Made by a program: the position numbers and the translations under genes. The notes beneath the pieces are model-generated. The model worked only from the letters and a program-made list of their open reading frames with translations, was not told where the DNA came from and made no database searches. Below, one piece after another: positions 16,638 to 62,521 of a stretch of DNA of 64,000 bases. Position 1 is the stretch's first letter. Each line of letters starts with the position of its first letter. The DNA lies in the sequence record PV419677.1, one strand, 5' to 3'. The stretch comes from a phage.

Positions 16638-17246
16638 TCACTTTAAGATGTTAATAACATGTTGAATGTTTTCAGTTGACATATGATTGTCAATGTAGGT
16701 ATTCAATCCACCTACTTTAACGCTAAATCCCACGTCTGTAAACTGTTTTACTATCTTTTGTTCAGTATTATACGCATGCACACGAATCTGACCATCACGA
16801 CGTACATCAATCTGTTTTAATGTCTTGATACGCTTGAACTTCACAATCAGATTGCTGCGGTCTTCTGAAATGCTCTTAAAGTCAATACCAATAGACAACA
16901 ATTGCTCTTTGATATATTCTGCAGTCGCTTCCATTTCATCAGTAACGCCGCGTTTTGTTCTTGTCTTCTTCACTTCCAGAAGGTCAGGATTATTTTCATT
17001 TGCCCAAAGTTCAGCTGCGTCCAGAATAAGGTCAACACCTTTTTCCGTAACCATCAAACCATCACCAGAAGCTTCAACATAGTTGTTATTCAACAATGTC
17101 TGTACGCTATCAATTGATGTGTTCTGCTGGTCTAAAACAACCTCAGGACGCACGAAGTTGTTTTTATATACAAACACCAGAGCATTAACATCAGTCTCAT
17201 GTAGAGCGTTCTGGGAGCATTTAACGATATAATTTAGCTTGTTCAT
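16638..17246 (-). CDS. motA: middle transcription activator MotA
   Basis: 202 aa (T4 211 aa); position between arn cluster and gene 52; partial similarity to recalled MotA. Confidence 0.65.
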   Translation of the reverse strand: MNKLNYIVKCSQNALHETDVNALVFVYKNNFVRPEVVLDQQNTSIDSVQTLLNNNYVEASGDGLMVTEKGVDLILDAAELWANENNPDLLEVKKTRTKRGVTDEMEATAEYIKEQLLSIGIDFKSISEDRSNLIVKFKRIKTLKQIDVRRDGQIRVHAYNTEQKIVKQFTDVGFSVKVGGLNTYIDNHMSTENIQHVINILK

Positions 17247-17248
17247 AA

Positions 17249-17476
17249 TTATCCCTTAATAGATTTCATGTAATTTGATGCATATGATTGTACCACAGTA
17301 CGTTTCATATGGGAAGTAGAAACAATAACATCAATCGCTTGTTTACGTTCTTCTTTAGAATTCGCCAGTTTGAACATGTCAAAGTAATAATAGCAAGCTT
17401 CTTTATTAGATTTGAATTTAGCGTTAATGTATTCTTGACCTTCATTCTGTTGTGCAGTAAACATTTTATTCTCCAA
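17249..17476 (-). CDS. hypothetical protein
   Basis: 75 aa ORF directly upstream of motA. Confidence 0.45.
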   Translation of the reverse strand: MENKMFTAQQNEGQEYINAKFKSNKEACYYYFDMFKLANSKEERKQAIDVIVSTSHMKRTVVQSYASNYMKSIKG

Positions 17477-17480
17477 AGTT

Positions 17481-17548
17481 TTTTGTGATTCAGTTTGTAA
17501 CTCAGTATGGAATCATTATGCATCAGGTCAAGGGTCATGTACACTACT
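17481..17548 (-). promoter_or_regulatory. early promoter cassette (type B leader)
   Basis: minus strand GTGTACA -35, about 17 nt spacer, CATAAT -10, then conserved leader ...UUCCAUACUGAGUUAC; repeated at 21721, 35596, 43795. Confidence 0.5.
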
Positions 17549-17562
17549 TTTTTTAAAATATT

Positions 17563-17592
17563 TTAAAATAAAAAAGGACCCCGAAGGGTCCT
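17563..17592 (-). terminator. rho-independent terminator
   Basis: GGACCC-UUCG-GGGUCC hairpin plus U-run after small ORF downstream of gene 52. Confidence 0.6.
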
Positions 17593-17689
17593 AGTCTTTA
17601 TCTATCTTATTACCAATAAACATACCAACAATCACACCTGCGATTGCCGCAAAAATACAAAGCAATGCAAACTCAACTCCAAAACTCAT
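17591..17689 (-). CDS. small hydrophobic protein (32 aa)
   Basis: ATG overlaps gp52 TGA (ATGA); MSFGVEFALLCIFAAIAGVIVGMFIG single TM. Confidence 0.35.
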   Translation of the reverse strand: MSFGVEFALLCIFAAIAGVIVGMFIGNKIDKD

Positions 17690-19065
17690 AGAGCCTCCAA
17701 ATCATTAAGGTATTCAGTTTTAACATCAGTTGTCTTCCAGTACTCATGCTCAGCTTTCTTAGCCTTTGCTTCGTCTGCAAGCTTCTTGGCTTCATCAGAG
17801 GTCATATGGTAGATGTTCATCGCCACTAACTTCTCTGCATAATCGCCATATATTTCACTCGCCTGGAGTTCCTCAATCAACTTCTTACGAGGTTTTCCCT
17901 GGATAACAACCTTACCATCAATCACTTCTTTAATAAAGAAGACTTTTGCCCGGGCCAGTTTAAATGCCGCTTCAGTTTCTTTAATCTTACTGTCAATTCG
18001 CACTTGAACATAAGTCTTACGGACATCAACGAAATCGCGAATCAGGTCAAGCGTGTTGGTATATTCAGCCAATTTGCCTTTGTGATTAAGCACAGTTAAG
18101 TTCTGGGAGAGCTTCTCAATCAGACCAAAGTCTTTCATGATTTTCTCATGATTCTCTTCTTCGGTGCCATCCAACTTGTATTCTTTACGGAATTTAATCT
18201 TAAACCCAAAACCATGTTCACCGCAGTTATCTTTCCAGGTGATAAAACCTTTCTCTTCCAGCGGGTCCAGGATTTTACTTGTATATTTTTCCAGGTTCCA
18301 TTGGACCGGGATTTCAGTAATTTCCATTTGAGTCCGGGAAGTCATTTTGTACGTGCCATGAAGTTCATACTTACCAGGCTCTTCCAGCTCAACAACTTTA
18401 CCACGGAATTCTGGATATTTTACTTTCGGAGCAACCGGCTCACGACCTTCCACGATAGCTTTAACAGCTTCCTTGACGTCCTGGAACGAATGAGGAAGGA
18501 TATCAGTAGCAAAGCCAACAGCAATCCCAGAAGTGGCGTTAAGTAATACAGTAGGAATAACAGGAAGATAAAAAGCAGGAGGCTTATGTTCTTCATCAGG
18601 ATGGACCGGAGCATATTCTGTATCCTTAAACAAGTTGTAAAAGTTCTTTGAAACCCTTGCGAATACATAACGAGCCGATGATGCTTCTGGTACCATTCTG
18701 GAACCAAAGTTACCTTGCCCATCAAACATAGGATATTCATTTTTATATGTTGCAACCAGACCAGAAGTTGCTTCTTCCGCTGATGCTTCACCATGGTGAT
18801 AACCATAATCAGCTACGCCACCTGCGATGGATGCAACTTTATGGAATTTATTCTTATCACCACGCGCCAGGTCTAATGCTCTCGCCATAACAAATCTGTG
18901 AACTGGTTTAAAACCATCAATCATGTTTGGGATGGCACGACCTTCCACAGTGTAGATAGCATATGACAATGCTTCCACATCAATAATGTCTTTTAGACTG
19001 CGTGGGTTAAGGGTCCCCATGGAATCACTGAACTGTTTGGACATCATACTTAAAACGTCAGACAT
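17686..19065 (-). CDS. 52: DNA topoisomerase II medium subunit gp52
   Basis: 459 aa (T4 442 aa); GyrA-like N-terminus ...GFKPVHRFVMARALD... Confidence 0.9.
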   Translation of the reverse strand: MSDVLSMMSKQFSDSMGTLNPRSLKDIIDVEALSYAIYTVEGRAIPNMIDGFKPVHRFVMARALDLARGDKNKFHKVASIAGGVADYGYHHGEASAEEATSGLVATYKNEYPMFDGQGNFGSRMVPEASSARYVFARVSKNFYNLFKDTEYAPVHPDEEHKPPAFYLPVIPTVLLNATSGIAVGFATDILPHSFQDVKEAVKAIVEGREPVAPKVKYPEFRGKVVELEEPGKYELHGTYKMTSRTQMEITEIPVQWNLEKYTSKILDPLEEKGFITWKDNCGEHGFGFKIKFRKEYKLDGTEEENHEKIMKDFGLIEKLSQNLTVLNHKGKLAEYTNTLDLIRDFVDVRKTYVQVRIDSKIKETEAAFKLARAKVFFIKEVIDGKVVIQGKPRKKLIEELQASEIYGDYAEKLVAMNIYHMTSDEAKKLADEAKAKKAEHEYWKTTDVKTEYLNDLEAL

Positions 19066-19073
19066 ATATCACC

Positions 19074-19214
19074 TTACCAGATTAACGAATGTACTGCCAT
19101 TATAGCATCAGAAATAAAAAGCACAACCTGCACTAATGCAAACACAACTCCATAATAAAGCGCCACCAACAAAGTAGCAAGGGCTAACGAGTAGCCCAAG
19201 ATTTTCTTAATCAT
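19074..19214 (-). CDS. small hydrophobic protein (46 aa)
   Basis: ATGA overlap with upstream ORF; hydrophobic; ac/52.1 locus of T4. Confidence 0.35.
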   Translation of the reverse strand: MIKKILGYSLALATLLVALYYGVVFALVQVVLFISDAIMAVHSLIW

Positions 19215-19359
19215 TTTTATCCAATAATTTAAATAGTGTTAAAGTCGCTAATACACCTTGAGCTGTTGACTGCAGAAATACTGAAGTTTCTCCAGTTATT
19301 AATGTTCCAACAAATAAAAATGACCAACAGAAAAAAGCTACGCCATGAACAAATTTCAT
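19207..19359 (-). CDS. small hydrophobic protein (50 aa)
   Basis: ATG with GAGGA Shine-Dalgarno; hydrophobic; ac/stp locus. Confidence 0.4.
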   Translation of the reverse strand: MKFVHGVAFFCWSFLFVGTLITGETSVFLQSTAQGVLATLTLFKLLDKND

Positions 19360-19439
19360 ATTTTCCTCAAGGGCGTCCAAAGACGCCAGTTAATTTCAGA
19401 TTATAACGATGCCATTGCATCACGTGTTCATTATGGAAA

Positions 19440-19613
19440 TTACTCATATATACCACACATTTTGCATAAGCGTTCAAAACAGATATACCCACCACTAAAG
19501 CACATAGTAACAGCAACTTTATCATTAAATGGAGCACCAAATGCTATAAAGGCTCCTGTAATAACAAATAGTGCTAAAACAAATAGGTAACCCATTGTAA
19601 AGAAATGTCTCAT
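19440..19613 (-). CDS. small membrane protein (57 aa)
   Basis: ATG one nt after ndd stop; TM segment [19 protein letters not shown]. Confidence 0.35.
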
Positions 19614-19614
19614 A

Positions 19615-20064
19615 TTAATAGCTCTGCAGAATGAATTTAAAGTTATCAGCAAGCATGCGATTCATTTCTGAAAGGGTCTGGCAATCAGAACTATGTGAGC
19701 GAGTGAACGCCATCGCAATTTGACCTTTACCATAACCAGTTGTCAGAGGTTTCATTTTAGAAACTGGGACAAACAGGACTTCATAGATAACCCCATTGTT
19801 CGCCATTGTGCGAGACAGTTGAGAACGCTGTTTGCGGATGTGACTTAATACAGTGTCAAACCCTTGTTGTGAACGTTGGTTACCAACATAAAAACGTGCA
19901 GCAACAATACGTGATTCGCCTTCACCTTTAACCACGAAATAAAAACCTGGTTGAGTGATAGCTTCTTTAGTTGGGCGACCGGCAACATAATTACCATTAT
20001 GGATATAAGCAACAGTGGTAGCACCAGCATTCAGTACGTCACGACGGGTCATGTAAGTAGTCAT
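19615..20064 (-). CDS. ndd: nucleoid disruption protein Ndd
   Basis: 149 aa; [45 protein letters not shown] match recalled T4 Ndd (151 aa). Confidence 0.9.
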
Positions 20065-20095
20065 ATTAATTTCCTCAGTAAGTTAAAGTTTTGTG

Positions 20096-20138
20096 CTCCA
20101 GTGGGGTCATTATACTCTGACCCCAAGAGTTTGTACAC
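20096..20138 (-). promoter_or_regulatory. early promoter cassette (type A) upstream of ndd
   Basis: minus strand GTGTACA-N17-TATAAT; -10 lies in loop of inverted repeat GGGGTCA/TGACCCC; 44 bp identical to 31163..31202. Confidence 0.55.
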
Positions 20139-20482
20139 TATTTTTGTAGTTGTTCTAAAATAAATCCACTGGTGTAAAGGCTTGCATTATACAGACGGTC
20201 AAGAGACAACGAATCCAACCCATAAGCTTCACGAATTGCATTCACAACACTTTCATAACTTGTATAATAAACATCGCGATAATCGCGGTCCATAGTCATG
20301 CGGAACTTAATAAATTTATAGAAACCAGTTTCAGGGTCCTGATAGAATGCAAATTCAGCAGACATCAAATTTTTAAGGTTAACAGCTTTTGTGCCACCTG
20401 AATAACTTAAATCAAATGCTTCTGATATGCTAATTTGTTTAAAGAACATAATGTTGCGATTACCAAAAAATACTTTAGACAT
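20138..20482 (-). CDS. hypothetical protein
   Basis: 114 aa; ndd-rIIB variable region. Confidence 0.5.
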   Translation of the reverse strand: MSKVFFGNRNIMFFKQISISEAFDLSYSGGTKAVNLKNLMSAEFAFYQDPETGFYKFIKFRMTMDRDYRDVYYTSYESVVNAIREAYGLDSLSLDRLYNASLYTSGFILEQLQK

Positions 20483-20502
20483 AATATTTTCCTCAATTAA
20501 AT

Positions 20503-20540
20503 TTTATTATCCATGGGAACATTATACTCTGCTCCCAAGA
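20503..20540 (-). promoter_or_regulatory. early promoter cassette (type A)
   Basis: near-identical copy of the 20096 cassette (GTGTACAAACTCTTGGG..GAGTATAATG). Confidence 0.5.
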
Positions 20541-20549
20541 GTTTGTACA

Positions 20550-20795
20550 CTATTCTACATCTACCGCGTCATCCCACAAGTCAACTTCTTCTGATGATTC
20601 CATCAGTTCATCAACTGTGAAGCACTCAGTATTATTTTCAATTGCAAAACGCTTCTGATAAAAAGGATAATCCAAACAGTTTTCAGTGCGCACGGGGCGC
20701 TCGCTGTTATCCATTAAAGGCGAAATGCGAATCAGTTGTTGACCATTACCCAGGACAAATTTTTCACCAACTGCAATGTCTTTAAAAAGTTTCAT
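20550..20795 (-). CDS. hypothetical protein
   Basis: 81 aa; acidic C-terminus. Confidence 0.5.
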   Translation of the reverse strand: MKLFKDIAVGEKFVLGNGQQLIRISPLMDNSERPVRTENCLDYPFYQKRFAIENNTECFTVDELMESSEEVDLWDDAVDVE

Positions 20796-20998
20796 TGCTT
20801 AGCTCCATTCCAAATTACATCAACAACAGACTTCAAACCATTATCCTGGATTTGTGTGAACACTTCAGCAGCAATCCAGAGCTGGAAACCAATCATTGCA
20901 ATGGCACCAATGAAAATCAGGATAATCATCGCCACAATAAACTTGAACATAAAGTCAAAGCGACGATTGGATTTCTGAAATTTTGAATTGTAATTCAT
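20792..20998 (-). CDS. hypothetical membrane protein
   Basis: 68 aa from ATG at 20998 (GAGGA Shine-Dalgarno); track start at 21046 is a TTG codon; TM segment FIVAMIILIFIGAIAMIGF. Confidence 0.45.
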   Translation of the reverse strand: MNYNSKFQKSNRRFDFMFKFIVAMIILIFIGAIAMIGFQLWIAAEVFTQIQDNGLKSVVDVIWNGAKQ

Positions 20999-21008
20999 AA
21001 TATTATCC

Positions 21009-21125
21009 TCAAAAGAAATAGTTAAAGTAAACGCGCACATGGTCAATCATAAAAACAATTGGGAAAATGCTCAGAACAACAAACAGTACAAACATGTTCC
21101 AAATGGCTTTAAGTAACTTTTTCAT
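21009..21125 (-). CDS. small hydrophobic protein (38 aa)
   Basis: ATG with GGAG Shine-Dalgarno directly downstream of a promoter cassette; hydrophobic. Confidence 0.35.
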   Translation of the reverse strand: MKKLLKAIWNMFVLFVVLSIFPIVFMIDHVRVYFNYFF

Positions 21126-21132
21126 AATCATC

Positions 21133-21180
21133 TCCAGTAGTTGATAGGTTCATTATACTACAACCACTGGAGATGTACAC
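21133..21180 (-). promoter_or_regulatory. early promoter cassette (type A)
   Basis: GTGTACA-N16-TATAAT followed by leader AUCAACUACUGGAG. Confidence 0.5.
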
Positions 21181-21270
21181 TCTTTTATGCAAGTTTCATT
21201 AATAATAAACTAAAACAAACGCAAATTACTGGGATACACAGCATCCAGATAAGGCACCAGGTTTTGCTGC

Positions 21271-21537
21271 TCAAAATATCACCTCTTTTATTTCAATCAG
21301 ACCTCGGTACAATGCAGTGCGAAGGTCATAAAGAATATCTATGCCATCAACATTATCCAGTTTTCCATCAATAAGCTTTTTTAAATCTTCCTTTGATGCA
21401 ATCAATGGACGAAGAAATTTACAATCAGAAAGAGACAATTCTGTGGTAACATCATCACCATCACCTGACGCATCATACATAGCGGCAACAACCATACCTG
21501 TAACTTTGTGTTTGGCGTAGTATAATTTAATATCCAT
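21271..21537 (-). CDS. hypothetical protein
   Basis: 88 aa from ATG at 21537 with GAGGA Shine-Dalgarno. Confidence 0.45.
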   Translation of the reverse strand: MDIKLYYAKHKVTGMVVAAMYDASGDGDDVTTELSLSDCKFLRPLIASKEDLKKLIDGKLDNVDGIDILYDLRTALYRGLIEIKEVIF

Positions 21538-21547
21538 TTTATTTTCC

Positions 21548-21703
21548 TCATGCATAACGATTGTATGTATTTTTGCGACACGCGTAAAATTGACGCTCAG
21601 TAACTGCAAAACTTTTTCCACGTTGTTGCATTAATTTAAAAAATTCAGTAATATCGCCATTAACTTCAAGGTATAAAGTCATTGCATATTGAGCAGGTTT
21701 CAT
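21548..21703 (-). CDS. hypothetical small protein (51 aa)
   Basis: ATG with GGAGA Shine-Dalgarno just downstream of a type B cassette. Confidence 0.35.
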   Translation of the reverse strand: MKPAQYAMTLYLEVNGDITEFFKLMQQRGKSFAVTERQFYACRKNTYNRYA

Positions 21704-21720
21704 TTTATTCTCCAGTTGTT

Positions 21721-21770
21721 TGGTAACTCAGTATGGAATCATTATACATAGACTCCATACTGATGTACAC
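21721..21770 (-). promoter_or_regulatory. early promoter cassette (type B leader)
   Basis: GTGTACA -35 and TATAAT -10, conserved leader shared with 17481/35596/43795. Confidence 0.5.
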
Positions 21771-21780
21771 TACTTTTTAA

Positions 21781-22056
21781 TTAATTGTGCATTTGTTCTT
21801 TAACTTCTTTATATGCGCCAACTGCATTCACGACCCCAGTAAAATCTGCAGTCCCACGATAGAGATAGAAAGCGATTTCAGTCAGGTGGTAGACTTCAAA
21901 TTCTGAAAGATAAATGATAACGTCATAATAGGCAACTTGTCCCTGGACTTCGTTGAATACTACATCAAAAATTTCATGGGTTGGAAAATTGATGTTGTTG
22001 TTTTTGAGTGCTTGAATAAGAATTTGTTTGATGTTATTAGTAGTAACGTGTTCCAT
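21781..22056 (-). CDS. hypothetical protein
   Basis: 91 aa from ATG at 22056 with GAGGA Shine-Dalgarno. Confidence 0.45.
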   Translation of the reverse strand: MEHVTTNNIKQILIQALKNNNINFPTHEIFDVVFNEVQGQVAYYDVIIYLSEFEVYHLTEIAFYLYRGTADFTGVVNAVGAYKEVKEQMHN

Positions 22057-22059
22057 GAT

Positions 22060-22114
22060 AATGTCCTCATTTGTGTGTGAGGACATTATTACATGGTTGG
22101 TTCAGCTTGTAAAC
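22060..22114 (-). promoter_or_regulatory. early promoter
   Basis: minus strand GTTTACA -35, 16 nt spacer, TAATAAT -10. Confidence 0.45.
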
Positions 22115-22695
22115 CGGTGATAGGGAAATTTTTCTTCTGAACAAGAACGGAGGTACCAGCCATCCCCTTGTGACTTCTGCACAAGACCAGACTCAGGAAC
22201 GAAAGCGCCAGGTCCAGCAAGGAATTTTGGTTTAAATCTATAACCTTTGATAGTCTCTTTTACATCGAACATAATCATAAGGTCAGCAAGCTTGTGCTGC
22301 ATAAAAGGGCCAAGATTAACTCCGTAACCGTGTGGGTAATCGCCATGGCTGCCAGTGTGCACGGATATCCATTTGGAACCAGACTGATGGGTCTTGACTT
22401 CGATTCTTACCCCTTCCTTCGAAACTACATCAAATGCAAAGGAATAAGGATTATCGTAATCTTCATCGCCACCACATAAAAAACCGGAGGTCCATTTAGC
22501 AATAGCTTGTTCAGCCATTGTAGCCACCATACATCTTTGCATGACTTGCTCACGGTCCTGACCAGGGTCTTTACGCAATGAATACCTGGCAGTGTCTACA
22601 ATCTTTTGCAGGGATTCGGGGGTTAAGTCTTCTTTTGTATAAAGAAAGGAGGGCATCTTTTTCAGATGCTCCCATGTTTTACTCTTCTGAATCAT
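22102..22695 (-). CDS. putative PD-(D/E)xK-type nuclease (candidate denB-like)
   Basis: 197 aa; FAFDVV...RIEVKT resembles D...(D/E)xK nuclease core; lies near rIIB where T4 has denB; assignment tentative. Confidence 0.4.
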   Translation of the reverse strand: MIQKSKTWEHLKKMPSFLYTKEDLTPESLQKIVDTARYSLRKDPGQDREQVMQRCMVATMAEQAIAKWTSGFLCGGDEDYDNPYSFAFDVVSKEGVRIEVKTHQSGSKWISVHTGSHGDYPHGYGVNLGPFMQHKLADLMIMFDVKETIKGYRFKPKFLAGPGAFVPESGLVQKSQGDGWYLRSCSEEKFPYHRFTS

Positions 22696-22948
22696 CTTTT
22701 ACCTCATCGATACCGACGATTCCCCGGATATGAAGCTCGCCATAGTACAAACGGTCATTAGCATCAAATGTATCAGAATCCGGGTCAGGGAATTCCCCAA
22801 CAACTACTTCATCACATTCCAACCAGCCATAGTGAACATCACCTTCATGCTTGATGAGCTTACCACAGTAAACTATTCCCGCATAATGATGACCCCGGAG
22901 ATTTGAAACTTTGATGTCACGGTCTGACACATTGAAATGCTTAATCAT
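22679..22948 (-). CDS. hypothetical protein
   Basis: 89 aa. Confidence 0.45.
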   Translation of the reverse strand: MIKHFNVSDRDIKVSNLRGHHYAGIVYCGKLIKHEGDVHYGWLECDEVVVGEFPDPDSDTFDANDRLYYGELHIRGIVGIDEVKDDSEE

Positions 22949-22951
22949 AAT

Positions 22952-23161
22952 TTATTCACCAAAATAAGAGATACGAGTTGCCAGTACATGAGCATAAGCG
23001 CCCATCGCATCCAACTGGGCAATCAAAAGACCTTGTTGACGAGCATCGAGAGTTTCAAAAACTCCACCCTTAATAAACTCTTCAAGAGCATTAATTTTCA
23101 AAACCAGCTGGTCATATTCTTCAACTACACGTGCTTGGAAACCTAACATTTCTTTAGACAT
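22952..23161 (-). CDS. hypothetical protein
   Basis: 69 aa. Confidence 0.4.
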   Translation of the reverse strand: MSKEMLGFQARVVEEYDQLVLKINALEEFIKGGVFETLDARQQGLLIAQLDAMGAYAHVLATRISYFGE

Positions 23162-23645
23162 TGTGTTCTTCCATATATTTTAATCGAGCTTCATTTGCTT
23201 CTTCTGGAGTTGCAAAAGCTCCGACTTGAATTTGTTTTTTATTTCGCATAATAGTGGCTCGCCATGGTTTATTCAAAGCTCGTTTATCAAACGAGACTCC
23301 TTTAAATCCAGACTTGTTGTTATTATACGGGCGCTTATTTAAAGCATTCTCGCCTGGACTAACCCATCTGCAGTTATCGGGAGAGTACCCTTTATCGTTA
23401 TCTGTTCGGTCAAGTTGATGTTTGTCAGTGGGTCGTGGCCCCATATCTGTATAAAATCTTTCAAAATCATGCAGCCATTCATCGCAAACAGTGATACCCC
23501 GACCGCCATATCGAGAATAACTAATATGTGTTGGATTGCAACACCGAGCTTTCATGCCAATCCATACAATGTATTCAGGCGTGTGACCTAGCCCGTGGAC
23601 AATACCACGAGCCGAGCCATCTTTAGCAATTGTTTGTTTAATCAT
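23154..23645 (-). CDS. HNH homing endonuclease with AP2 DNA-binding domain
   Basis: 163 aa; HNH-like ...LDRTDNDKGYSPDNCRWVSPGENALNK; AP2-like SGFKGVSFDKRALNKPWRATI...AFATPEEANEAR. Confidence 0.7.
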   Translation of the reverse strand: MIKQTIAKDGSARGIVHGLGHTPEYIVWIGMKARCCNPTHISYSRYGGRGITVCDEWLHDFERFYTDMGPRPTDKHQLDRTDNDKGYSPDNCRWVSPGENALNKRPYNNNKSGFKGVSFDKRALNKPWRATIMRNKKQIQVGAFATPEEANEARLKYMEEHNV

Positions 23646-24615
23646 TGAAACGTTCGGTCACATCTTCAAGAACCAGGTAACCGCAAACCCTCATCTTACT
23701 ATCGGAATAATCCACCGGGATGCTTACAACATCACGCGGGTGAACTTTACAGGATACGATGCGCCCATCACCATGACCAAAACCGCTTCCGAGATAACCT
23801 TTAGAACAAACATGCAGCCCAGTTGAGCAGGTTTGTTCGTCATTGTCATTCACACGAGAGCGTGGCATTTTAACATATTTACCAGGACTGTTGTCGAATG
23901 TGTTTGAGTGACAATCTTTGTAGGTTGAACGAACCATTTTCCAGGCGATGAAATGACCATCTTCGGTGATTTCGATATCGTTCGCAACCAGGAAGTCAAA
24001 CAAACGTTGCACTGCTTTTTCACTCGGGTTTTCAAGGAGATTCTCGAGGAATGGCAGATAGAATTCAAAGTCTTCGCCATTTTGCATTGAATCAATGATA
24101 CGCGTAACCAGACCAGAGCGCAGTTCAATTCCCTGATAGAACAGGCTACCACCTTCAATACGCACATCGCCTTTCACATATTTTTGCACTGCAGCTTTGA
24201 TTGAGATAAACTCGATAGCATCATCAAAACGCGATTCTTTGAGCGCTTGGACAATATCATCAAAGTGCTTATGGTCTTTTGTTGCGTTCCAGACCGTACG
24301 GCCTTCAGTGATGGAAACGAATTTGCTTGATGCATTCCATACGATTTCCGGGCGGCTTCCGCCGATTGTATCAGTAACCGGGACTTCAACCGTTACTGTC
24401 ACCGGAGCATTAATCGCCACACCAACAGCTGCTTTCAGTGATGCAGAAATGGTTTTAGCTAATTTTGATTCTTTATCATTTTTCAAAACGCGGCGAATGG
24501 TGTCAACGGACACAGCAAAATATTCTGCCAATTCAGGCTGGGTATAATTGCCCGTTGAATACATCTGGACCACATCAGCTTGTTCGGCTTTAGACATACA
24601 TTTGATATTAAACAT
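23638..24615 (-). CDS. rIIB: rIIB protein
   Basis: 325 aa (T4 312 aa); adjacent to rIIA. Confidence 0.85.
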   Translation of the reverse strand: MFNIKCMSKAEQADVVQMYSTGNYTQPELAEYFAVSVDTIRRVLKNDKESKLAKTISASLKAAVGVAINAPVTVTVEVPVTDTIGGSRPEIVWNASSKFVSITEGRTVWNATKDHKHFDDIVQALKESRFDDAIEFISIKAAVQKYVKGDVRIEGGSLFYQGIELRSGLVTRIIDSMQNGEDFEFYLPFLENLLENPSEKAVQRLFDFLVANDIEITEDGHFIAWKMVRSTYKDCHSNTFDNSPGKYVKMPRSRVNDNDEQTCSTGLHVCSKGYLGSGFGHGDGRIVSCKVHPRDVVSIPVDYSDSKMRVCGYLVLEDVTERFND

Positions 24616-24616
24616 A

Positions 24617-26851
24617 TTATTCCTTATTGGCCGCTTCCACGGCCTTCATGATTTGAGCAACGTTCTGTACTTGTTCAGTTGACATGGCGTTACGGTTATA
24701 TAAAAAGTGTGAAACAATCGGGTGATTCTTTTCAAATTCAAAAACCATTTTATCGCTTGTTACCGAAGCGTTTTTGGTCAGGTCGTCATAAATCTTATTA
24801 CAAAGGACCAGAGTTTCCTGCATGGTCTTATCAACTGTTCCACTGTTATATGCGTTATAAGCAAAGAACTTATTGAACTGCATTAATTCGGCATAGTCAG
24901 TATTCACATCTTTCTGAACATCTTTTGCATAAAAATACTTGAACATAAAATTCAGTTCTGCATATTCAGACAGGATAGGAATATAATAACGCGAACGGCT
25001 TGAAGCGGCAATGTACTGGTCCGCATCAACCGCATCAATCAATTCCACATAACGATTGACTGCAGCTTCAATCAGACAATCACACTGCGCCAGCTTGGTA
25101 ATCTTTTTCTGAAGCTGTGGACGAATAACACAGAATTCATTGATTTCCAACAGGTTTGCCAGTTTACACAATGTCTGGGTCCCGAAGGTCGTGGTGCCAT
25201 ATTCTTGATTCAACGGGGAAATGCTACTGCGATTAATGAATACAGCATAACCATCGATTTCCTCTGCATCAGCTGCACATGTAAATTCTTCAACAGACTG
25301 CCATTTGCCATTAGTTTTAGTCCAACGAATCAATGATGGAGTCTTTGACTTAACGCGCGCTTTCGGGTCAGCAACCGGAATCCAGTCTTTTACAAGGGCG
25401 GTCAGTTCAGACGTACGATAGATATTAACTGTATCGCCTTTAAATCGTTCTTGAAGTTGAACCATCAGACGTGTTTGAATTTCGCTGGTTGGGTCAACGA
25501 ACAATAGACTACTACCTTGTACAGTCGGGACTTTACCAGATGCTTTGAGCTTTTTGGCTTTCGCGCTGGTGTCATATAGCATTGAACTGATACCACGAAT
25601 CATCGCAATTCGCCCTTTAGCATCGTCAATAACAATGTTCAAGGTATTATTCTGAATACCAAACATGCTCGTCAGGCTTGCAGTATTCGTGTTCGAGCTT
25701 GAGTTACGCAGACGTTTCAGACGGGTAGTGCTATAGATATCATAGACAACCCCGGCATTAATAAGGTCTTTGTCCAGCTCGAACATTTCATACATCTGGT
25801 TAAAGGTCAATTGCGATTTCGTAAATTTCGTTTCAGCATTACGAGCTTTCAGAAAATTACGAGCTTCATAACTCAGACTCTGTAATTCGCGATACGTGTG
25901 GCGGATACATTCTGATTCCTGCCATTTCTTACAATCATCTTCCATGACTTTCTTATCAAGGGATTCAATACGTTCAACGATATTTGCGACCGTACGTTTA
26001 TCCAGTGATAATGCTTCGCGAGAAGGTGCAATATCCAACGAACCCATCGGGAACTTAATAAAGACAACATCATTTTTGGCGGTCATCCAGGTTTTCTTTG
26101 TATAACCGTCAGCAATTGGATAAACAATTCCACCGTAAATTGCATAAAGACCATAACGTTCTGGGCTGCTATAATCAATACGCTCTGGAGCATAATAATC
26201 ATCAAATTCCGGGAAATAATTAATTTCGCCTACGCCTTGTACTTCAGCCAGTCCAGCAAATGGGCGCATGATATATGCAATCTCGTGGCGGAACTTACCA
26301 AAATCATTACTATCAACCGGGACAACAACTTCAATCCCTGTGCGGTCGCCAGGTTTCATTGGTTCGCTAAAGGTTGGCTTAATCTGTGGACCATCACCAT
26401 CCATATAAGCGACATAACCATTAACTTGACCATCATGATACGAAATCAGGCTAAACGTCTCTGTATAACTGAACGGAGATTTAGAACCCAGACCAAAGCC
26501 ACCAATAAAATCATTGGATTCAGCCTTGGATGATGCAAAGAAACTGTTATACAGACCTGGGGTATTTTCATCACCACGAATCTGGAAATCACTCATACCT
26601 GGGCCAAAGTCACGACACACAAAGCGTGGGTCCAGTTCACCAGGAGCTTGAACAATGAATTTATCCTGACAACCATTGAGCATATGAGCATCAATCATAT
26701 TGGTAATCAGCTCACGAACAACCGCACGCACCTTATTTGTATAAAGGTCACTGGTCAGAATCTTAAACACCTTTGGAGATGCCTGGATTGTGAATGCTGA
26801 TGCCTTGGCACCATTACCAAGGATTGTTTCCTTTTCAGTTTCTAAAATCAT
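24617..26851 (-). CDS. rIIA: rIIA protein (GHKL ATPase-like N-terminus)
   Basis: 744 aa (T4 725 aa); N-terminus MILETEKETILGNG...RELITNMIDAH matches recalled rIIA. Confidence 0.9.
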   Translation of the reverse strand: MILETEKETILGNGAKASAFTIQASPKVFKILTSDLYTNKVRAVVRELITNMIDAHMLNGCQDKFIVQAPGELDPRFVCRDFGPGMSDFQIRGDENTPGLYNSFFASSKAESNDFIGGFGLGSKSPFSYTETFSLISYHDGQVNGYVAYMDGDGPQIKPTFSEPMKPGDRTGIEVVVPVDSNDFGKFRHEIAYIMRPFAGLAEVQGVGEINYFPEFDDYYAPERIDYSSPERYGLYAIYGGIVYPIADGYTKKTWMTAKNDVVFIKFPMGSLDIAPSREALSLDKRTVANIVERIESLDKKVMEDDCKKWQESECIRHTYRELQSLSYEARNFLKARNAETKFTKSQLTFNQMYEMFELDKDLINAGVVYDIYSTTRLKRLRNSSSNTNTASLTSMFGIQNNTLNIVIDDAKGRIAMIRGISSMLYDTSAKAKKLKASGKVPTVQGSSLLFVDPTSEIQTRLMVQLQERFKGDTVNIYRTSELTALVKDWIPVADPKARVKSKTPSLIRWTKTNGKWQSVEEFTCAADAEEIDGYAVFINRSSISPLNQEYGTTTFGTQTLCKLANLLEINEFCVIRPQLQKKITKLAQCDCLIEAAVNRYVELIDAVDADQYIAASSRSRYYIPILSEYAELNFMFKYFYAKDVQKDVNTDYAELMQFNKFFAYNAYNSGTVDKTMQETLVLCNKIYDDLTKNASVTSDKMVFEFEKNHPIVSHFLYNRNAMSTEQVQNVAQIMKAVEAANKE

Positions 26852-26858
26852 GTTTTTC

Positions 26859-27068
26859 TCACTTTATGTTACGTTTGATTAATTCTGCAACTTCAAGAAG
26901 TTCATCCTTTGTTGCGGTGTCTGAAGCTATTTTAATACGGATTTCTTTGAAGCGTTCTTTAAACTCTTCAGCTTCTCTTATATCAAAAAATCGTTGGATA
27001 ACACGGTATTCTTTATGGACAGCTTTATCAAACAGTTCCATATTAACTTTGAAGTTTGTCATTTCCAA
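26859..27068 (-). CDS. hypothetical protein
   Basis: 69 aa. Confidence 0.45.
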   Translation of the reverse strand: MEMTNFKVNMELFDKAVHKEYRVIQRFFDIREAEEFKERFKEIRIKIASDTATKDELLEVAELIKRNIK

Positions 27069-27327
27069 TCTCCTGCAATATTTTTCTCATACTACGCATG
27101 GTAGCTTTATGTTCTTGGCCATGGTATATCAATGCAAGGAGTGCTTCAATTCGCTCCTCAGGAACCTTCTGGCCAGCCTTAATGCTCATGGCTGATGCTC
27201 TTACAGCCAACAAGTAACTTCGCTTCCTGTCGCTATCTGGGAGCTCCTGTACCTTCCTCAGACCTGCTTCCATAATACAACGTGCAACATTCTGCAGATT
27301 AACTAAACTTCCGTCAGACATAATCAT
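27043..27327 (-). CDS. hypothetical protein
   Basis: 94 aa. Confidence 0.45.
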   Translation of the reverse strand: MIMSDGSLVNLQNVARCIMEAGLRKVQELPDSDRKRSYLLAVRASAMSIKAGQKVPEERIEALLALIYHGQEHKATMRSMRKILQEIGNDKLQS

Positions 27328-27373
27328 ATGTTCACCTCAAGGATATCTTAACGCAATTTTTGTGGCTTGTACA

Positions 27374-27398
27374 TAATAAAAAAGGACCCGAAGGTCCT
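27374..27398 (-). terminator. rho-independent terminator
   Basis: GGACC-UUCG-GGUCC hairpin plus U-run after the 50-aa ORF stop. Confidence 0.55.
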
Positions 27399-27403
27399 TT
27401 TGG

Positions 27404-27556
27404 CTACTCAACTTTATAGACTTGCCCATATGCGGTATAGTATTCGCCATCCCAAGTCTCGCACATAATGGTGACAAAGGATGCAAACAGAGGTTTAGTA
27501 TCGGCCCACAGATAACCGTATTCGCCATTTGACAACGTAACCCACCACTTTTTCAT
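27404..27556 (-). CDS. hypothetical small protein (50 aa)
   Basis: ATG with AGGAGA Shine-Dalgarno; protein-like composition; overlapping track ORF 27337..27528 is another frame and runs through the terminator. Confidence 0.4.
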   Translation of the reverse strand: MKKWWVTLSNGEYGYLWADTKPLFASFVTIMCETWDGEYYTAYGQVYKVE

Positions 27557-27574
27557 GGACTTCTCCTATAAGAC

Positions 27575-27590
27575 GGGAGAATATTCTCCC
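27575..27590. promoter_or_regulatory. perfect 16-bp palindrome GGGAGAATATTCTCCC
   Basis: sits between gp39 stop and the next ORF; could be RNA hairpin or protein-binding site. Confidence 0.4.
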
Positions 27591-27598
27591 ACATCTAT

Positions 27599-29431
27599 TT
27601 ATAGTGTTGCATTCATCCAATCTTTACGCTGCTGGGAATCTTTACCGAAGAGCATTTCGAACAGTTCTTTCCAGTTGTCGGGCAATTGAACAACTTCGAA
27701 TACCGGTTCGAGCAATACGCGTTTGTACTCGGCATCTTCCAGAGAACCAAGTCCCTTTATATATCTGATAGTATGCTTCGGAAGTTTATCCTTAGCTTCT
27801 TCATAATCAGGAAGAGAATAGAACCATTCTTGTTTATCTTTGAGCTGCGCAATAATAACAGGAGTTTTCACAAAGCGAATTCGTCCTTCATGGAACAGCT
27901 CTGGCCAGTTACTGAAAAACGCCAATAACGATGGATAGATACTACCAACACCATCCACATCCGCATCTGTCATGATAGCAATGTTTCGGTAATTCATATT
28001 CTCGGCCGGTTGTCCAATCGTTAAACCAGTAATCGCACACACATCAAAGGCTTCGGCGTTCTTCATAACGTCAACAGCTTTCAGACCCCATGTGTTTTTG
28101 AACTTACCACGTAACGGATAAGCACCTTGCAATTCACGGTCGCGAACCTTGATAAATGGCCCGGTTGCAGAATCACCTTCGGTCAGGAATAGAGTCGTTT
28201 CCAGCTTATCATTGCCCCATTCGTTGGCCTTGATATGCTTTTGCACCTTGGCCTTTGAAGCTTTCTTATTCGCCTTGGTCTCTGCTGCTTTCTCTGCAGC
28301 CAATTTACGGGCTAATGCAGCTTCAACAATCGGCATAATCAGCGGTTCATTTTTCAGAATAGCTTGCGCGATTTTCTTGGCATCAATCTTAATGTGATTT
28401 CGAATTTCACCAGCTGGAGAAGTCAGTCGCTCCTTAGTCTGGGAATCAAATCGCATGTTGCTCATATCGCGGATGAACATAAGCATGGTGAGGCATTCTT
28501 TAACTCGTGCCTTGGTCACCTCGATGCCTTTATATTTGCGCTTAATGGCCGGCTGAAGGTGTTCACAGATATCATCCATAACACATTCAACGTGGTGTCC
28601 ACCATTCTTTGTATGAATGTTGTTGACATAAGTCAGCTGTCGAAAACCGTCCGGGCTAGTCGTAAAGGCCATCGATACTGTATCCGTTTCCTGGATAACA
28701 ACTTCGGTTCCGAATTGCTTGGCGAACTTCTTGAAATTGCCATCAACCTTTTTACCATTAAAGGTAAACTGAATATCCGGATAAACAACCGCAAGAGTCT
28801 GCAGACGGTCCAATGTAATATCCAGATAAATCTGGGACAGGCTATTTTCTTCAAAGTGACTGAAGTCCGGAACAAAAATAACAGTTGTACCTTTACCCTT
28901 AGATTTCTTGGTAGACCAACCTTTGTTTTCCATACCATTGGAGCAGTTAACGGTGATTTCATTTGTGCCGTCGGCAGTAATCCCGGTGAACAATACAGAG
29001 AAAATATTAGTCAGAGAAGACCCGACGCCATTCATCCCGCCAGTTTTACGTTCAGCATCATCACCGAAGTTACCACCTGCTTTTGGAATAGTCCATGCTG
29101 CAACAGGGCCAGGGATTTGTTCACCGTTTTGGTCTGTAACCATTGCTTGTGGAATACCACGGCCATTATCAGAAACCGAAATCTGATTATCTTTAATTTG
29201 GACATCAATTTTATTGGCAAATTTAAAACTGGTGCGAATTGCTTCATCAACAGAGTTATCGATAATTTCATCAATCAGTTTTACAATACCAGGAACATAG
29301 CTTACGGACTTATATTCACCAAACAAGAATCGCTCATGCGCTTCATTTGAACTGGAACCAATATACATCCCGGAACGTTTTTTGATATGCTCGACGTCCG
29401 AGAGTACTTTAATTTCATTATTAATCATCAT
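27599..29431 (-). CDS. 39: DNA topoisomerase II large subunit gp39 (unsplit, includes gene-60 equivalent)
   Basis: 610 aa; GyrB-like ATPase N-terminus; single ORF rather than T4's 39 + 60. Confidence 0.9.
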   Translation of the reverse strand: MMINNEIKVLSDVEHIKKRSGMYIGSSSNEAHERFLFGEYKSVSYVPGIVKLIDEIIDNSVDEAIRTSFKFANKIDVQIKDNQISVSDNGRGIPQAMVTDQNGEQIPGPVAAWTIPKAGGNFGDDAERKTGGMNGVGSSLTNIFSVLFTGITADGTNEITVNCSNGMENKGWSTKKSKGKGTTVIFVPDFSHFEENSLSQIYLDITLDRLQTLAVVYPDIQFTFNGKKVDGNFKKFAKQFGTEVVIQETDTVSMAFTTSPDGFRQLTYVNNIHTKNGGHHVECVMDDICEHLQPAIKRKYKGIEVTKARVKECLTMLMFIRDMSNMRFDSQTKERLTSPAGEIRNHIKIDAKKIAQAILKNEPLIMPIVEAALARKLAAEKAAETKANKKASKAKVQKHIKANEWGNDKLETTLFLTEGDSATGPFIKVRDRELQGAYPLRGKFKNTWGLKAVDVMKNAEAFDVCAITGLTIGQPAENMNYRNIAIMTDADVDGVGSIYPSLLAFFSNWPELFHEGRIRFVKTPVIIAQLKDKQEWFYSLPDYEEAKDKLPKHTIRYIKGLGSLEDAEYKRVLLEPVFEVVQLPDNWKELFEMLFGKDSQQRKDWMNATL

Positions 29432-29471
29432 CTTTCCTCTTGTGTATGGAGGTATTATAAGTCACATATTT

Positions 29472-29495
29472 TAAAGCAAAAAGGCCCGAAGGCCT
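29472..29495 (-). terminator. rho-independent terminator
   Basis: GGCC-UUCG-GGCC hairpin plus U-run downstream of lipoprotein gene. Confidence 0.5.
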
Positions 29496-29755
29496 TATTC
29501 AAATCGGATGGTACTGTTCTTGAATAGCAAACCAGAACAAACAGTTCCTTCAACTTTCTTACCAGTTGGGCCCACGGCCGTAAAGCCTGTATGTTGGAAA
29601 TCATCTTTACCGCAAGAGAACCAATTATATCCGGTGATTTGGATTTGCTCATAGCCGTTTGCATCTAATACACGAATGGCGTTATCTGCATCAGTACAAC
29701 CAGCTAATGAAACCGCCAGCACCAGCGCGGCAATAGAACGATTAATGTATTTCAT
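29495..29755 (-). CDS. putative lipoprotein
   Basis: 86 aa; signal peptide with lipobox LAGC. Confidence 0.6.
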   Translation of the reverse strand: MKYINRSIAALVLAVSLAGCTDADNAIRVLDANGYEQIQITGYNWFSCGKDDFQHTGFTAVGPTGKKVEGTVCSGLLFKNSTIRFE

Positions 29756-29761
29756 AATTTC

Positions 29762-29938
29762 TCACTTAGTCAGCAGGTCGTAAAAACCGCCATTAACATG
29801 TTTAGGGGCCGAGACTAACCGAACAGCCAGCCGATGGCAATCAGGACAAACATCATTATCTCTTTCAGAGATTTTCTTGATTTTTTCGTATTCTTTCGCG
29901 CAGTCATCAGATTGGCATTTGTAATCATAAAGTGGCAT
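29762..29938 (-). CDS. FmdB-like zinc-ribbon protein (58 aa)
   Basis: MPLYDYKC...C(17)...CPDC with N-terminus like FmdB family MPIYEYxC; AAGGA Shine-Dalgarno; below ORF-track cutoff. Confidence 0.45.
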   Translation of the reverse strand: MPLYDYKCQSDDCAKEYEKIKKISERDNDVCPDCHRLAVRLVSAPKHVNGGFYDLLTK

Positions 29939-29939
29939 G

Positions 29940-30311
29940 TTATTCCTTAAAGTGTGCTTTCAACATCTGGTAAACGGTCCAGGCTTCGGAGTTATTAGAG
30001 ATGGTGATTTTAGTCAAAGGGAATTCGCTTGGCTCAGATGGAGCCGCGTCTTCGCATTCATCTTCAGTATCGTCATCTTTTTCTTCTTCAAAGAAATGGA
30101 ATTCATCTTCCTTTATGAATAGGCTCACAAATTCACCAGTTGATAATTCCATTTTATACACATCACCATCTTCAATTCTGACTGGTCTAAATCCCTCGCC
30201 ATTGATTATAGCATTGGCTATATTATCATTATCTGTGCATAACAAACGGAATCTGCTTTCAGCAACATTATCTTTAAAATAATACCACTTATCAGTTTCA
30301 AATTTAGACAT
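29940..30311 (-). CDS. hypothetical acidic protein
   Basis: 123 aa from ATG at 30311 (AAGGAG Shine-Dalgarno); acidic stretch EEEKDDDTEDECEDAAPSEPSE. Confidence 0.5.
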   Translation of the reverse strand: MSKFETDKWYYFKDNVAESRFRLLCTDNDNIANAIINGEGFRPVRIEDGDVYKMELSTGEFVSLFIKEDEFHFFEEEKDDDTEDECEDAAPSEPSEFPLTKITISNNSEAWTVYQMLKAHFKE

Positions 30312-30528
30312 TATAAATCTCCTTCCAAAAATCCGTACCATTTTCTGATTCTTCGCGGAACAACGCATAACTAGGTAATTTTGCGTCTTTGTCTGCATAC
30401 ACATAAATGATATCAGTGGTGCAAAGAAATTCATTGATGTTTTTCTTCACAATCACTTTATCACTTTCGGCAGTGTCCCAAAACTCTTCAGCGGTCAGGG
30501 AAGTGGTCACACAATCTGCATTAAACAT
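30304..30528 (-). CDS. hypothetical protein
   Basis: 74 aa; GAGGAGA Shine-Dalgarno. Confidence 0.5.
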   Translation of the reverse strand: MFNADCVTTSLTAEEFWDTAESDKVIVKKNINEFLCTTDIIYVYADKDAKLPSYALFREESENGTDFWKEIYNV

Positions 30529-30576
30529 AATATTCTCCTCATTGATAGGGCAAAATTACCCTATCATTTTTATAAT

Positions 30577-31131
30577 TTAGGCAAAATGGATATCAGCATA
30601 CTCAACGATAAAGCTCTCAGGAACAACCTTAAAGGTTCCAAGGAACACGATATTATACAGTTTGACACCTTCTTCAACCCACTGGTCTGTGATGTAACCA
30701 GACATGCTAGTGGTTTCATAAGTCGGACCATACATGCAATTGTATTCAAACGGTTTAGGTGAAACAAAAAAGACACCTTTGCCCAATTTCCATTTAAAAT
30801 CAACCCCAACATGAGACTGGTCAATGGTTTCAACGTCTTGAGCAATTACGCCACGGATATCATTGCTTTCGCACACATATCCATCATGGGATTCAACTTC
30901 CTCAGACACAGGAGCGATATATCCAGTAAATTCGGTTGATTCCAGGAATTTAGGATGCACATAAGCCAATTGAGTTTCAGTCTGACCATTTTTAGGAATG
31001 ATACGCACTTTAACTTCTTTAATTCCACCTACTAAATTAGTGCGAAGACCCACAACCTCAACAAAACGACCAGCAGCTTTAGAACGAGATTCTTTAGAAA
31101 CACGTACAATATCACCAGCTTCAACTTTCAT
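30577..31131 (-). CDS. hypothetical protein, paralog of 31211..31966 (shared C-terminal domain)
   Basis: 184 aa; C-terminus YITDQWVEEGVKLYNIVFLGTFKVVPESFIVEY aligns with GWVTDQWIEDGVELLNVVHAGEFTVVPRSMVVE. Confidence 0.6.
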   Translation of the reverse strand: MKVEAGDIVRVSKESRSKAAGRFVEVVGLRTNLVGGIKEVKVRIIPKNGQTETQLAYVHPKFLESTEFTGYIAPVSEEVESHDGYVCESNDIRGVIAQDVETIDQSHVGVDFKWKLGKGVFFVSPKPFEYNCMYGPTYETTSMSGYITDQWVEEGVKLYNIVFLGTFKVVPESFIVEYADIHFA

Positions 31132-31162
31132 AATTTTCTCTCTTGGTTAATAAGTTTATTCT

Positions 31163-31202
31163 CCAGTGGGGTCATTATACTCTGACCCCAAGAGTTTGTA
31201 CA
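31163..31202 (-). promoter_or_regulatory. early promoter cassette (type A)
   Basis: 44 bp identical to 20096..20138. Confidence 0.55.
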
Positions 31203-31210
31203 CTTTAAAT

Positions 31211-31966
31211 TTAATTAAAAATTTCAACAACCATAGAACGTGGTACAACAGTAAATTCACCAGCATGGACAACGTTCAGGAGTTCAACACCATCTTCAAT
31301 CCACTGGTCTGTTACCCAACCACAAATGGAACTATTAAATGGGCGTTTGATTTGAACTGGTTTGCATAACAAGTCAATAGGGTCACCCAGTTCGCTAACT
31401 TCTTCCAGCAGTACAGATTCACGCGGATAAAGGATAGCTTCAAGATTGTCACCTGATTCATTGACCGCAGTAAATTCAAAGATGCTTTGGTGATTGTGGT
31501 ACTTAACTGTTTTAACGGTAAATGGAGCAAATCCAAAAATACCTTTCAGTACCCGCCACCCGGCATGCATTGCAACAGTCTTTCCAAACTGACTGGCATC
31601 TTCAATAAGCTGATAGGTTTTACCAACTTTGATAGGAGTTTCTTCAACTTCCTTGAAGAGCTCAATCTCAGCTTCATAAACAATAATTTTTTCTACTTCA
31701 TTAGTATCAAGGCGACGTGCATGCAGAATATATGCGTTATAAAACCAGTTACTTTTTACAAAAGTTTCAACAATAAATTCACCTTCACCTAAAGCATCAG
31801 CCAGAGTATTATACCCAGAAATCATAGCTGCGTTTTGAGTAATAGGTTTAACCAGATGATAAGTTTTGTTAATTTCAATAGTCATATTTTGTTTCTCAAG
31901 TTTTAATGGTTTAATTGGGCGAACATACATACTTACAACATCAAAGTCAATAAATTCTGGTTTCAT
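31211..31966 (-). CDS. hypothetical protein, paralog of 30577..31131
   Basis: 251 aa; shares C-terminal domain with neighbour. Confidence 0.6.
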   Translation of the reverse strand: MKPEFIDFDVVSMYVRPIKPLKLEKQNMTIEINKTYHLVKPITQNAAMISGYNTLADALGEGEFIVETFVKSNWFYNAYILHARRLDTNEVEKIIVYEAEIELFKEVEETPIKVGKTYQLIEDASQFGKTVAMHAGWRVLKGIFGFAPFTVKTVKYHNHQSIFEFTAVNESGDNLEAILYPRESVLLEEVSELGDPIDLLCKPVQIKRPFNSSICGWVTDQWIEDGVELLNVVHAGEFTVVPRSMVVEIFN

Positions 31967-62449: not shown

Positions 62450-62521
62450 GATATATTCCTCAGTCTCATTAAATTAAAATTTTATTATCCTGGGGTCATT
62501 ATACCATGACCCCGTTGGTTT

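Follow-up and report, generated by a model that had tools for sequence, protein, structure and literature searches.

A probable PeSL-type promoter cassette duplicated in the early region of a Gaprivervirus T4-like coliphage

Promoter-early stem-loops (PeSLs) have been described in the phages RB49/phi1, PST/T4 and nt-1/KVP40 (Arbiol et al. 2010, PMC2839356; Comeau et al. 2014, PMC4122927). A second kind of hairpin with a promoter inside it is found at T4 genes e, soc, 49 and I-TevI, where the ribosome-binding site is sequestered by the structure (reviewed in PMC3014915). Here we compare with these systems an exact 44-bp repeat in a 64,000-nucleotide stretch of phage DNA (PV419677.1; the window). 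The window belongs to a Gaprivervirus (Straboviridae, Tevenvirinae), a T4-like coliphage that is 95–98% identical to Gaprivervirus genomes (the group of VR7, SP18, ECML-359, TH41 and UPEC01) in the early region. A search of a literature library on the early promoters of VR7-group phages found nothing relevant. We propose, with a probability of roughly 0.8, that the repeat is a PeSL-type cassette, that is, an early promoter combined with a hairpin of the readthrough RNA. The cassette is thus largely ordinary, being a kind of element that is already described, and its analysis places an eye-catching exact repeat in a known class and extends PeSL cassettes to the Gaprivervirus group.

Copies of the cassette and their genomic setting

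An exact-match search of the window recovered the 44-mer CTCCAGTGGGGTCATTATACTCTGACCCCAAGAGTTTGTACACT at exactly two places on the plus strand (copies 1 and 2, Table 1), and none of 100 dinucleotide-preserving shuffles contained a match. The two copies are direct repeats with a spacing of 11,065 bp. At either end the identity breaks off sharply, and the flanking sequences are unrelated (13/45 and 22/57 positions identical). In 26 phage records, a 47-mer that contains the repeat is matched with at least 99% identity, at three to four places per genome, and the repeat is therefore not an assembly artefact. The first-pass annotation of this DNA, which had been made from the sequence alone, was right that an identical 44-bp cassette is duplicated, and the repeat is reproduced in independent phage records; the end that it gave for the first copy and its positions for the second were off by one or two bases. 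On the minus strand, the coding strand in this region, the repeat reads AGTGTACAAACTCTTGGGGTCAGAGTATAATGACCCCACTGGAG.

A third, diverged copy is identical to the 44-mer at 35 of 44 positions in an ungapped comparison. It had been noticed as a near-copy at 20503-20540 and in fact occupies about 20508-20551. Its promoter and stem core differs at four positions, all of them in the stem and with pairing kept (GGGAGCA/TGTTCCC). The fourth copy, which had been missed, is partial and lacks a -35 element. Its arms are those of copies 1 and 2 (GGGGTCA/TGACCCC), its loop is changed to TGGTATAA, and the arms enclose TGGTATAAT, an extended -10 (TGnTATAAT). At the site orthologous to copy 4, the phages JS98 and HX01 carry a full cassette.

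Table 1. Coordinates of the cassette copies, their elements and the adjoining genes in the window
Feature	Position	Strand	Remarks
Cassette copy 1	20096..20139	-	upstream of ndd
Copy 1, -35 TGTACA	20137..20132	-	
Copy 1, 5' stem arm TGGGGTCA	20125..20118	-	
Copy 1, loop GAGTATAA	20117..20110	-	
Copy 1, -10 TATAAT	20114..20109	-	
Copy 1, 3' stem arm TGACCCCA	20109..20102	-	
Copy 1, predicted +1 (A)	20102	-	
Copy 1, GGAG	20099..20096	-	
Stop codon TAG of the ORF upstream of copy 1	20140..20138	-	abuts the -35
ndd (nucleoid disruption protein)	19615..20064	-	phrog_1102, E 1e-59; downstream of copy 1
ORF of 114 aa	20138..20482	-	phrog_10053 (function unassigned); between copies 3 and 1
Cassette copy 2	31161..31204	-	upstream of the MotB-like gene; 44 bp identical to copy 1
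Copy 2, -35	31202..31197	-	
Copy 2, -10	31179..31174	-	
Copy 2, 5' stem arm	31190..31183	-	
Copy 2, 3' stem arm	31174..31167	-	
Copy 2, predicted +1	31167	-	
MotB-like transcriptional regulator gene, 184 aa	30577..31131	-	phrog_1671, E 5e-68; downstream of copy 2
motB.1-like gene	31211..31966	-	phrog_2333; upstream of copy 2
Stop codon TAA of the motB.1-like gene	31213..31211	-	
Cassette copy 3, diverged	20508..20551	-	core 20522-20549; upstream of ORF 20138-20482
Copy 3, -35	20549..20544	-	
Copy 3, -10	20526..20521	-	
Copy 3, 5' stem arm TGGGAGCA	20537..20530	-	
Copy 3, 3' stem arm TGTTCCCA	20521..20514	-	one G.U pair with the 5' arm
Cassette copy 4, partial	62492..62513	-	without -35; upstream of ORF 62123-62449 (DUF7570)

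On the minus strand, copies 1–3 contain the -35 TGTACA, a 17-nt spacer and the -10 TATAAT, with 10 of 12 matches to the sigma70 consensus in a generic scan. The TAG stop codon directly adjoins the -35 in copies 1 and 3, and the downstream SD and ATG lie 32–38 nt past the predicted +1. The stretch upstream of the -35 is AT-rich by eye in copies 1 and 2 and less so in copy 3. The elements thus stand on the coding strand between a stop codon and the SD/ATG of ndd, motB and a small ORF, which agrees with the earlier description of the repeat as a promoter cassette, although that account left the strand unstated and did not recognize the element class. A promoter on the plus strand was considered and rejected: the hexamers read ATTATA and TGTACA there, the genes all lie on the minus strand, and plus-strand promoter matches are at background level. 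The cassette family in the window comprises about 14 sites of the form tagTGTACA-N17-TATAAT, all on the coding strand and just ahead of genes. The host sigma70 RNA polymerase would be expected to start at the A right after the 3' arm and would thereby give immediate-early expression of ndd, motB and the small ORF; promoter activity, the +1 position and the readthrough RNA discussed below are all predicted from the sequence.

The early region has the order motA-52-ac-ndd-...-denB-rIIB-rIIA-39-goF-motB-dexA-dda, with all genes on the minus strand. Transcripts starting at copy 3 would read through ORF 20138-20482 into copy 1. The stop codon of the motB.1-like gene stands 6 nt ahead of copy 2, so that motB.1-like transcripts would carry the hairpin of that copy. 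The MotB-like gene itself exists in two length variants (184 aa in the window and P8, 184–186 aa in EAWsc9 and MN01; 163 aa in UPEC01, DK-13 and P896) with an internal breakpoint near 30839-30889, and the VR25 protein has a different N-terminus, starting MI as T4 MotB does. Elsewhere in the region, a 163-aa ORF (23154-23645, minus strand) is found in only MN01 among 10 close relatives, and its AP2-domain match is weak and does not reach the Pfam cut-off. It is a candidate for a mobile HNH-AP2-type endonuclease gene inserted between rIIB and the denB-side ORFs.

Further hairpins accompany other promoters in the window. Those with their -10 at 63487, 43825 and 43431 (minus strand) have a second class of hairpin, AAAGGGG-[-35 in loop]-CCCCTTT, which at 43431 is followed by T-rich sequence after the stem; judged by sequence, the three look like genuine terminator/promoter composites. 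Around the -10 at 21746 (minus strand), a 13-bp stem TCAGTATGGAGTC/GATTCCATACTGA spans about 21728-21763 (-21.6 kcal/mol, z = -4.8). At the promoters with their -10 at 21157 and 32260 (minus strand), the stems TCTCCAGT/ACTGGAGA and CCTCATCA/TGATGAGG pair promoter or leader sequence with the functional SD, and the predicted start falls after or inside the 5' arm. The logic of these two is that of the hairpins at T4 genes e and I-TevI, except that the promoters are early.

Selection on the hairpin and its possible roles

The cassette contains an 8-bp G/C-rich stem, TGGGGTCA/TGACCCCA. Its 5' arm falls within the promoter spacer (-23..-16), and the discriminator (-7..+1) makes up the 3' arm. Five bases of the -10 are in the hairpin loop, and the predicted start is the A straight after the stem. 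TATAAT had been placed in the loop of a perfect GGGGTCA/TGACCCC inverted repeat, which holds for the minus strand with the correction that the stem has 8 bp and that the final T of TATAAT opens the 3' arm. The cassette RNA folds with -18.6 kcal/mol (z = -3.3). For copy 3, the sense RNA gives -13.6 kcal/mol (z = -2.9) and the antisense RNA -7.1 kcal/mol (z = -0.5). Of the 15 candidate sites whose -35 is TGTACA, 6 have a stem of at least 6 bp around the -10, compared with 5% of random positions, and the six enclosing stems are unrelated in sequence: TGGGGTCA (twice), TGGGAGCA, ATGGAT (paired with ATCCAT), AGGGGTAA (paired with TTATCCCT) and the 13-bp stem at 21746. A search of positions 17000-36000 with the Rfam covariance models yielded two chance-level matches elsewhere and none at the cassettes. 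Since the 5' arm lies upstream of the predicted start, the cassette's own transcript cannot form the stem, and only transcripts coming from the upstream gene can do so.

The same cassette is recognizable in other genera. In T4 (NC_000866), the sequence before motB is TTTACAaactcttGGGACCAgagTATAATGGTCCC, with the -10 at about 7191 on the minus strand. It shares with the window the orthologous position, the spacer (AAACTCTTGGG...CAGAG), the loop and the register of the stem around the -10, but its stem is GGGACCA/TGGTCCC, with two compensated pair changes, and its -35 is TTTACA. No copy of the cassette is present before ndd in T4. Records of Tequatrovirus and Kanagawavirus typically contain one place per genome that matches the 47-mer. 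The stem is GAGGACA/TGTCCTC before ndd in Kanagawavirus, GAGAGCA/TGCTCTC in the Mosigvirus HX01, GGGGCCA/TGGTCCC and GGGGCCG/TGGCCCC in motB alleles of Gaprivervirus, and GGGAGTA/TACTCCC and GAGAGAT/TTCTCTC in metagenome variants. In MN01, whose cassettes lie at 3449 and 15087, the ndd and motB copies are both mutated at stem position 7 (A to T and A to G). By sequence comparison, one cassette lineage (spacer AAACTCTTG.G....CAGAG-TATAAT) is common to at least five Tevenvirinae genera, in which it stands ahead of different early genes.

Pairing was evaluated across 33 distinct variants from at least five Tevenvirinae genera, many of which are closely related, so that counts of alignment cells overstate the number of independent events. 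An IMG/VR scan for further variants returned only VR20, VR25, VR26 and JS98, and unrelated promoters that matched the pattern in a metagenome scan, with 1–7 of 8 stem pairs, were left out of the alignment. Pairing is maintained in 97.3% of the stem cells, compared with 84.8% in shuffled controls (0/500 reach the observed value) and at most 45% in slid registers. Four of the eight pairs are altered on both sides, and at one stem position GC, CG, UA, AU, GU and UG are all seen. In a set of 22 variants, 12 cells hold wobble pairs, every one of them G.U or U.G as read on the sense strand, and A.C is absent. Together, the compensatory changes and the sense-only G.U pairs show that the hairpin is under selection in single-stranded form, and the confinement of wobble pairs to the sense strand points to an RNA hairpin in readthrough transcripts. 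The hairpin may instead act in single-stranded sense DNA. We infer that in readthrough RNA the upstream cistron is marked off and insulated by the hairpin at its 3' boundary, where the hairpin may serve as an attenuator, as a stabiliser of the 3' end or as a shield for the adjacent GGAG.

One role to be considered is that of a true terminator of the upstream gene joined to a restart promoter. The PeSL211/210 stem-loop of phi1/RB49 cut lacZ read-through as much as rrnB T1 (PMC2839356), the hairpin starts about 20 nt past the upstream stop codon, and the three window promoters with AAAGGGG-loop-CCCCTTT stems around the -35 look terminator-like. However, a T/U-run after the stem is absent in every copy and orthologue: the sequence ends in ...CCCCACTGGAG in the window, ...CCCGTGGAG in T4 and ...CCTCCTTGGAG in Kanagawavirus. 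Classical intrinsic termination is unlikely without such a run, and we consider it doubtful that the hairpin is a terminator. A canonical intrinsic terminator was rejected for the individual copies as well, the tails ACTGGAGCAC, ACTGGAGAAT and ATGGATAATA being without a T-run, and a terminator scan of the window flagged none of the cassette copies while finding canonical terminators nearby. Terminators of the latter kind, with a UUCG tetraloop and a T-run, occur in the same early region at 17592-17575, 27401-27380 and 29496-29481 (minus strand). For the cassette subfamily of the window, a terminator role of the PeSL stem is thus unsupported by the sequences.

Another possibility, which we regard as similarly tentative, is that the hairpin distinguishes transcripts by their origin, the GGAG (an SD-like RegB site) being hidden in readthrough RNA and free in RNA from the cassette's own promoter. 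In minimum free energy folds of the window copies and of T4, CUCU/GGAG pairing lengthens the stem; GGAGAATAAA matches the RegB/S1 consensus GGAGRAYARAA, and the copy 2 leader GGAGAATAAAC agrees with it at 10 of 11 positions (PMC3014915 for the consensus). Secondary structure is known to protect against RegB (PMC3014915), and at the promoters 21157 and 32260 it is the functional SD itself that pairs in the stem. Against this, ndd and motB do not use the GGAG of their cassettes as SD, the real SD lying 20–25 nt further on, and the ndd SD-AUG is predicted to be unpaired with a probability of 0.62 in readthrough RNA and of 0.65 in RNA from the cassette's own promoter. The lower stem, moreover, has 4 bp with a bulge and is without covariation because the GGAG is invariant. 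Sequestration of the SD as the function of the cassette was rejected, since base-pair probabilities show no effect for ndd; an effect on the accessibility of the motB SD depends on long-range pairs and was judged untrustworthy. Stated more generally, the stem would be a conserved non-terminator RNA device of early promoters across the Tevenvirinae by which two RNAs of one gene are treated differently, a proposal that we likewise rate as unlikely. The readthrough RNA, with the hairpin, would have its GGAG/RegB site shielded and the upstream cistron capped at the 3' end, and the promoter-proximal RNA, without the hairpin, would expose the GGAG at +4..+7. If such a device exists, the covariation would supply the first evidence that selection acts on PeSL stems as RNA structure and not as recombination or termination signals.

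It is less probable still that the hairpin works as DNA, either as a cruciform or as a sequence-specific protein site that targets recombination to the cassettes. Arbiol et al. (PMC2839356) suggested GGGG...CCCC as a possible target of a recombination protein and mapped mini-circle crossovers within or beside the stem-loop, and cassettes stand at indel boundaries in the relatives analysed here. The arm sequence is not conserved, however, and a sequence-specific protein would not be expected to tolerate compensated changes at four of eight positions. A cruciform is disfavoured because both strands must pair in it: the wobble intermediates are all G.T on the sense strand, with no A.C, and would leave the opposite strand mismatched. 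Arms of 8 bp are also short for extrusion. Finally, the idea that the repeat is a mere duplicated strong promoter with an incidental inverted repeat, in which the two promoter hexamers and the length of the spacer would suffice to account for much of the conservation, is already contradicted by the covariation and is very improbable, as compensatory substitutions preserve pairing across genera in this register and not in slid ones (at most 45%), and other promoters in the window have the -10 within stems that are unrelated in sequence.

The compensatory changes in the stem, its sense-strand wobble pairs and its lack of a U-tract argue that PeSL stems work as RNA structure in readthrough transcripts, and they argue against both published suggestions for them, a sequence-specific DNA recombination target and a classical terminator.

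Recombination and modularity at the cassettes

The site of copy 3 exists in three states whose boundaries coincide exactly with the cassette. The window, UPEC01 and TH44 contain the cassette; TH54 lacks precisely this segment, its SD following straight after the stop codon; and TH40 and EAWsc9 have in its place about 190 bp encoding a 48-aa ORF. Among 10 relatives, the ndd-denB and 39-motB regions contain many indels at gene boundaries. DK-13, TH54 and TH40 have lost the ORF at 21548-21703, downstream of the promoter at 21746, and P896 has another sequence in its place; the swap junctions fall at the ACTGGAG leader. On a wider scale, the gene downstream of the cassette lineage is motB in Tequatrovirus, ndd in Kanagawavirus, a 55.x-region gene in JS98/HX01 and an unrelated gene in VR20/VR25. 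A comparison with relatives for different gene content downstream of the same cassette, as the first-pass annotation had proposed, thus shows that it precedes different genes in different phages and genera. That such cassettes act as homology patches by which genes are shuffled, an idea raised there as a swap of downstream genes, is the published PeSL model (PMC2839356, PMC4122927), and the relatives fit it. Over evolution, the cassettes would be portable homology patches where small genes and promoters are gained, lost and swapped.

Two rearrangements suggested for the 11-kb segment between the identical copies fared less well. Inversion does not apply, since crossing-over between direct repeats deletes or duplicates a segment or excises a circle and cannot invert it. 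Deletion was sought with synthetic junctions in which the ndd leader was joined to the flanking sequence of either copy 3 or the motB copy. The predicted ndd/third-copy and ndd/motB junctions occur in none of 50,697 phage records, every match being split in two or covering 61% of the query only. The 11-kb segment holds rIIA, rIIB, denB and the gene for the topoisomerase large subunit, and its loss would therefore probably be costly. Homology of less than 50 bp can be used in T4 recombination (Singer et al. 1982, as cited in PMC2839356). As the 44-bp direct repeats are close to this length, rare deletions or circles between the copies are plausible, which is relevant to phage engineering and to therapy stocks.

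From the sequences, we infer that gene conversion between paralogous cassettes best accounts for the match of the ndd and motB copies at 44 of 44 positions. Within this genome the paralogues are identical, and different stems and leaders are found in orthologues from other genera, which suggests concerted evolution. Strong selection on every base could also have kept the two copies identical. The motB core in Gapriverviruses is either identical to the ndd copy or T4-like, and in P896 and VR20 an upstream flank of the T4-like type is joined to an ndd-identical core. Such mosaic alleles are compatible with exchange inside the cassette, and they could also derive from ordinary allelic recombination between co-infecting phages instead of ectopic conversion; the flanks of the motB haplotypes are too alike to separate the two.

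Comparison with known systems

With Rho-independent terminators, the cassette shares a G/C-rich hairpin shortly past a stop codon, but it is without a U-tract and has an 8-nt loop that holds the -10. With the hairpins of T4 genes e, soc, 49 and I-TevI, it shares the arrangement in which the transcript from the internal promoter is without the 5' arm and transcripts initiated upstream fold. The T4 hairpins, however, contain late promoters and hide a functional SD/AUG, whereas the promoter of the window cassette is early and the functional SDs of ndd and motB are outside the stem.

The PeSLs are the closest match, and the cassette fits that class on every feature that can be judged from sequence. 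The two share a sigma70-like early promoter with hexamers 17 nt apart (in copies 1–3; copy 4 has only the extended -10) and a G-run/C-run stem-loop over the -10, G.T pairs included, which is one of the two commonest PeSL arrangements. Both are intergenic, extending from the stop codon upstream as far as the downstream SD/ATG, and the surroundings of both are small ORFs of a hyperplastic region, where close relatives differ by insertion, deletion and replacement. They differ in the -35, which is TGTACA here and TTGACA or TTTACW in the PeSLs, and in the stem, which lacks a T-run here and whose function as a terminator is doubtful. Mini-circle crossovers were mapped for the PeSLs, and no mini-circle or deletion product is documented for the present cassettes. 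The genus also differs: neither PMC2839356 nor PMC4122927 describes the element in Gaprivervirus, and the two papers make no mention of that genus, of motB or of compensatory changes. What is new here, and was not reported for PeSLs, is the covariation and its strand asymmetry: a stem that is kept by compensatory changes, with wobble pairs on the sense strand only and without a U-tract.
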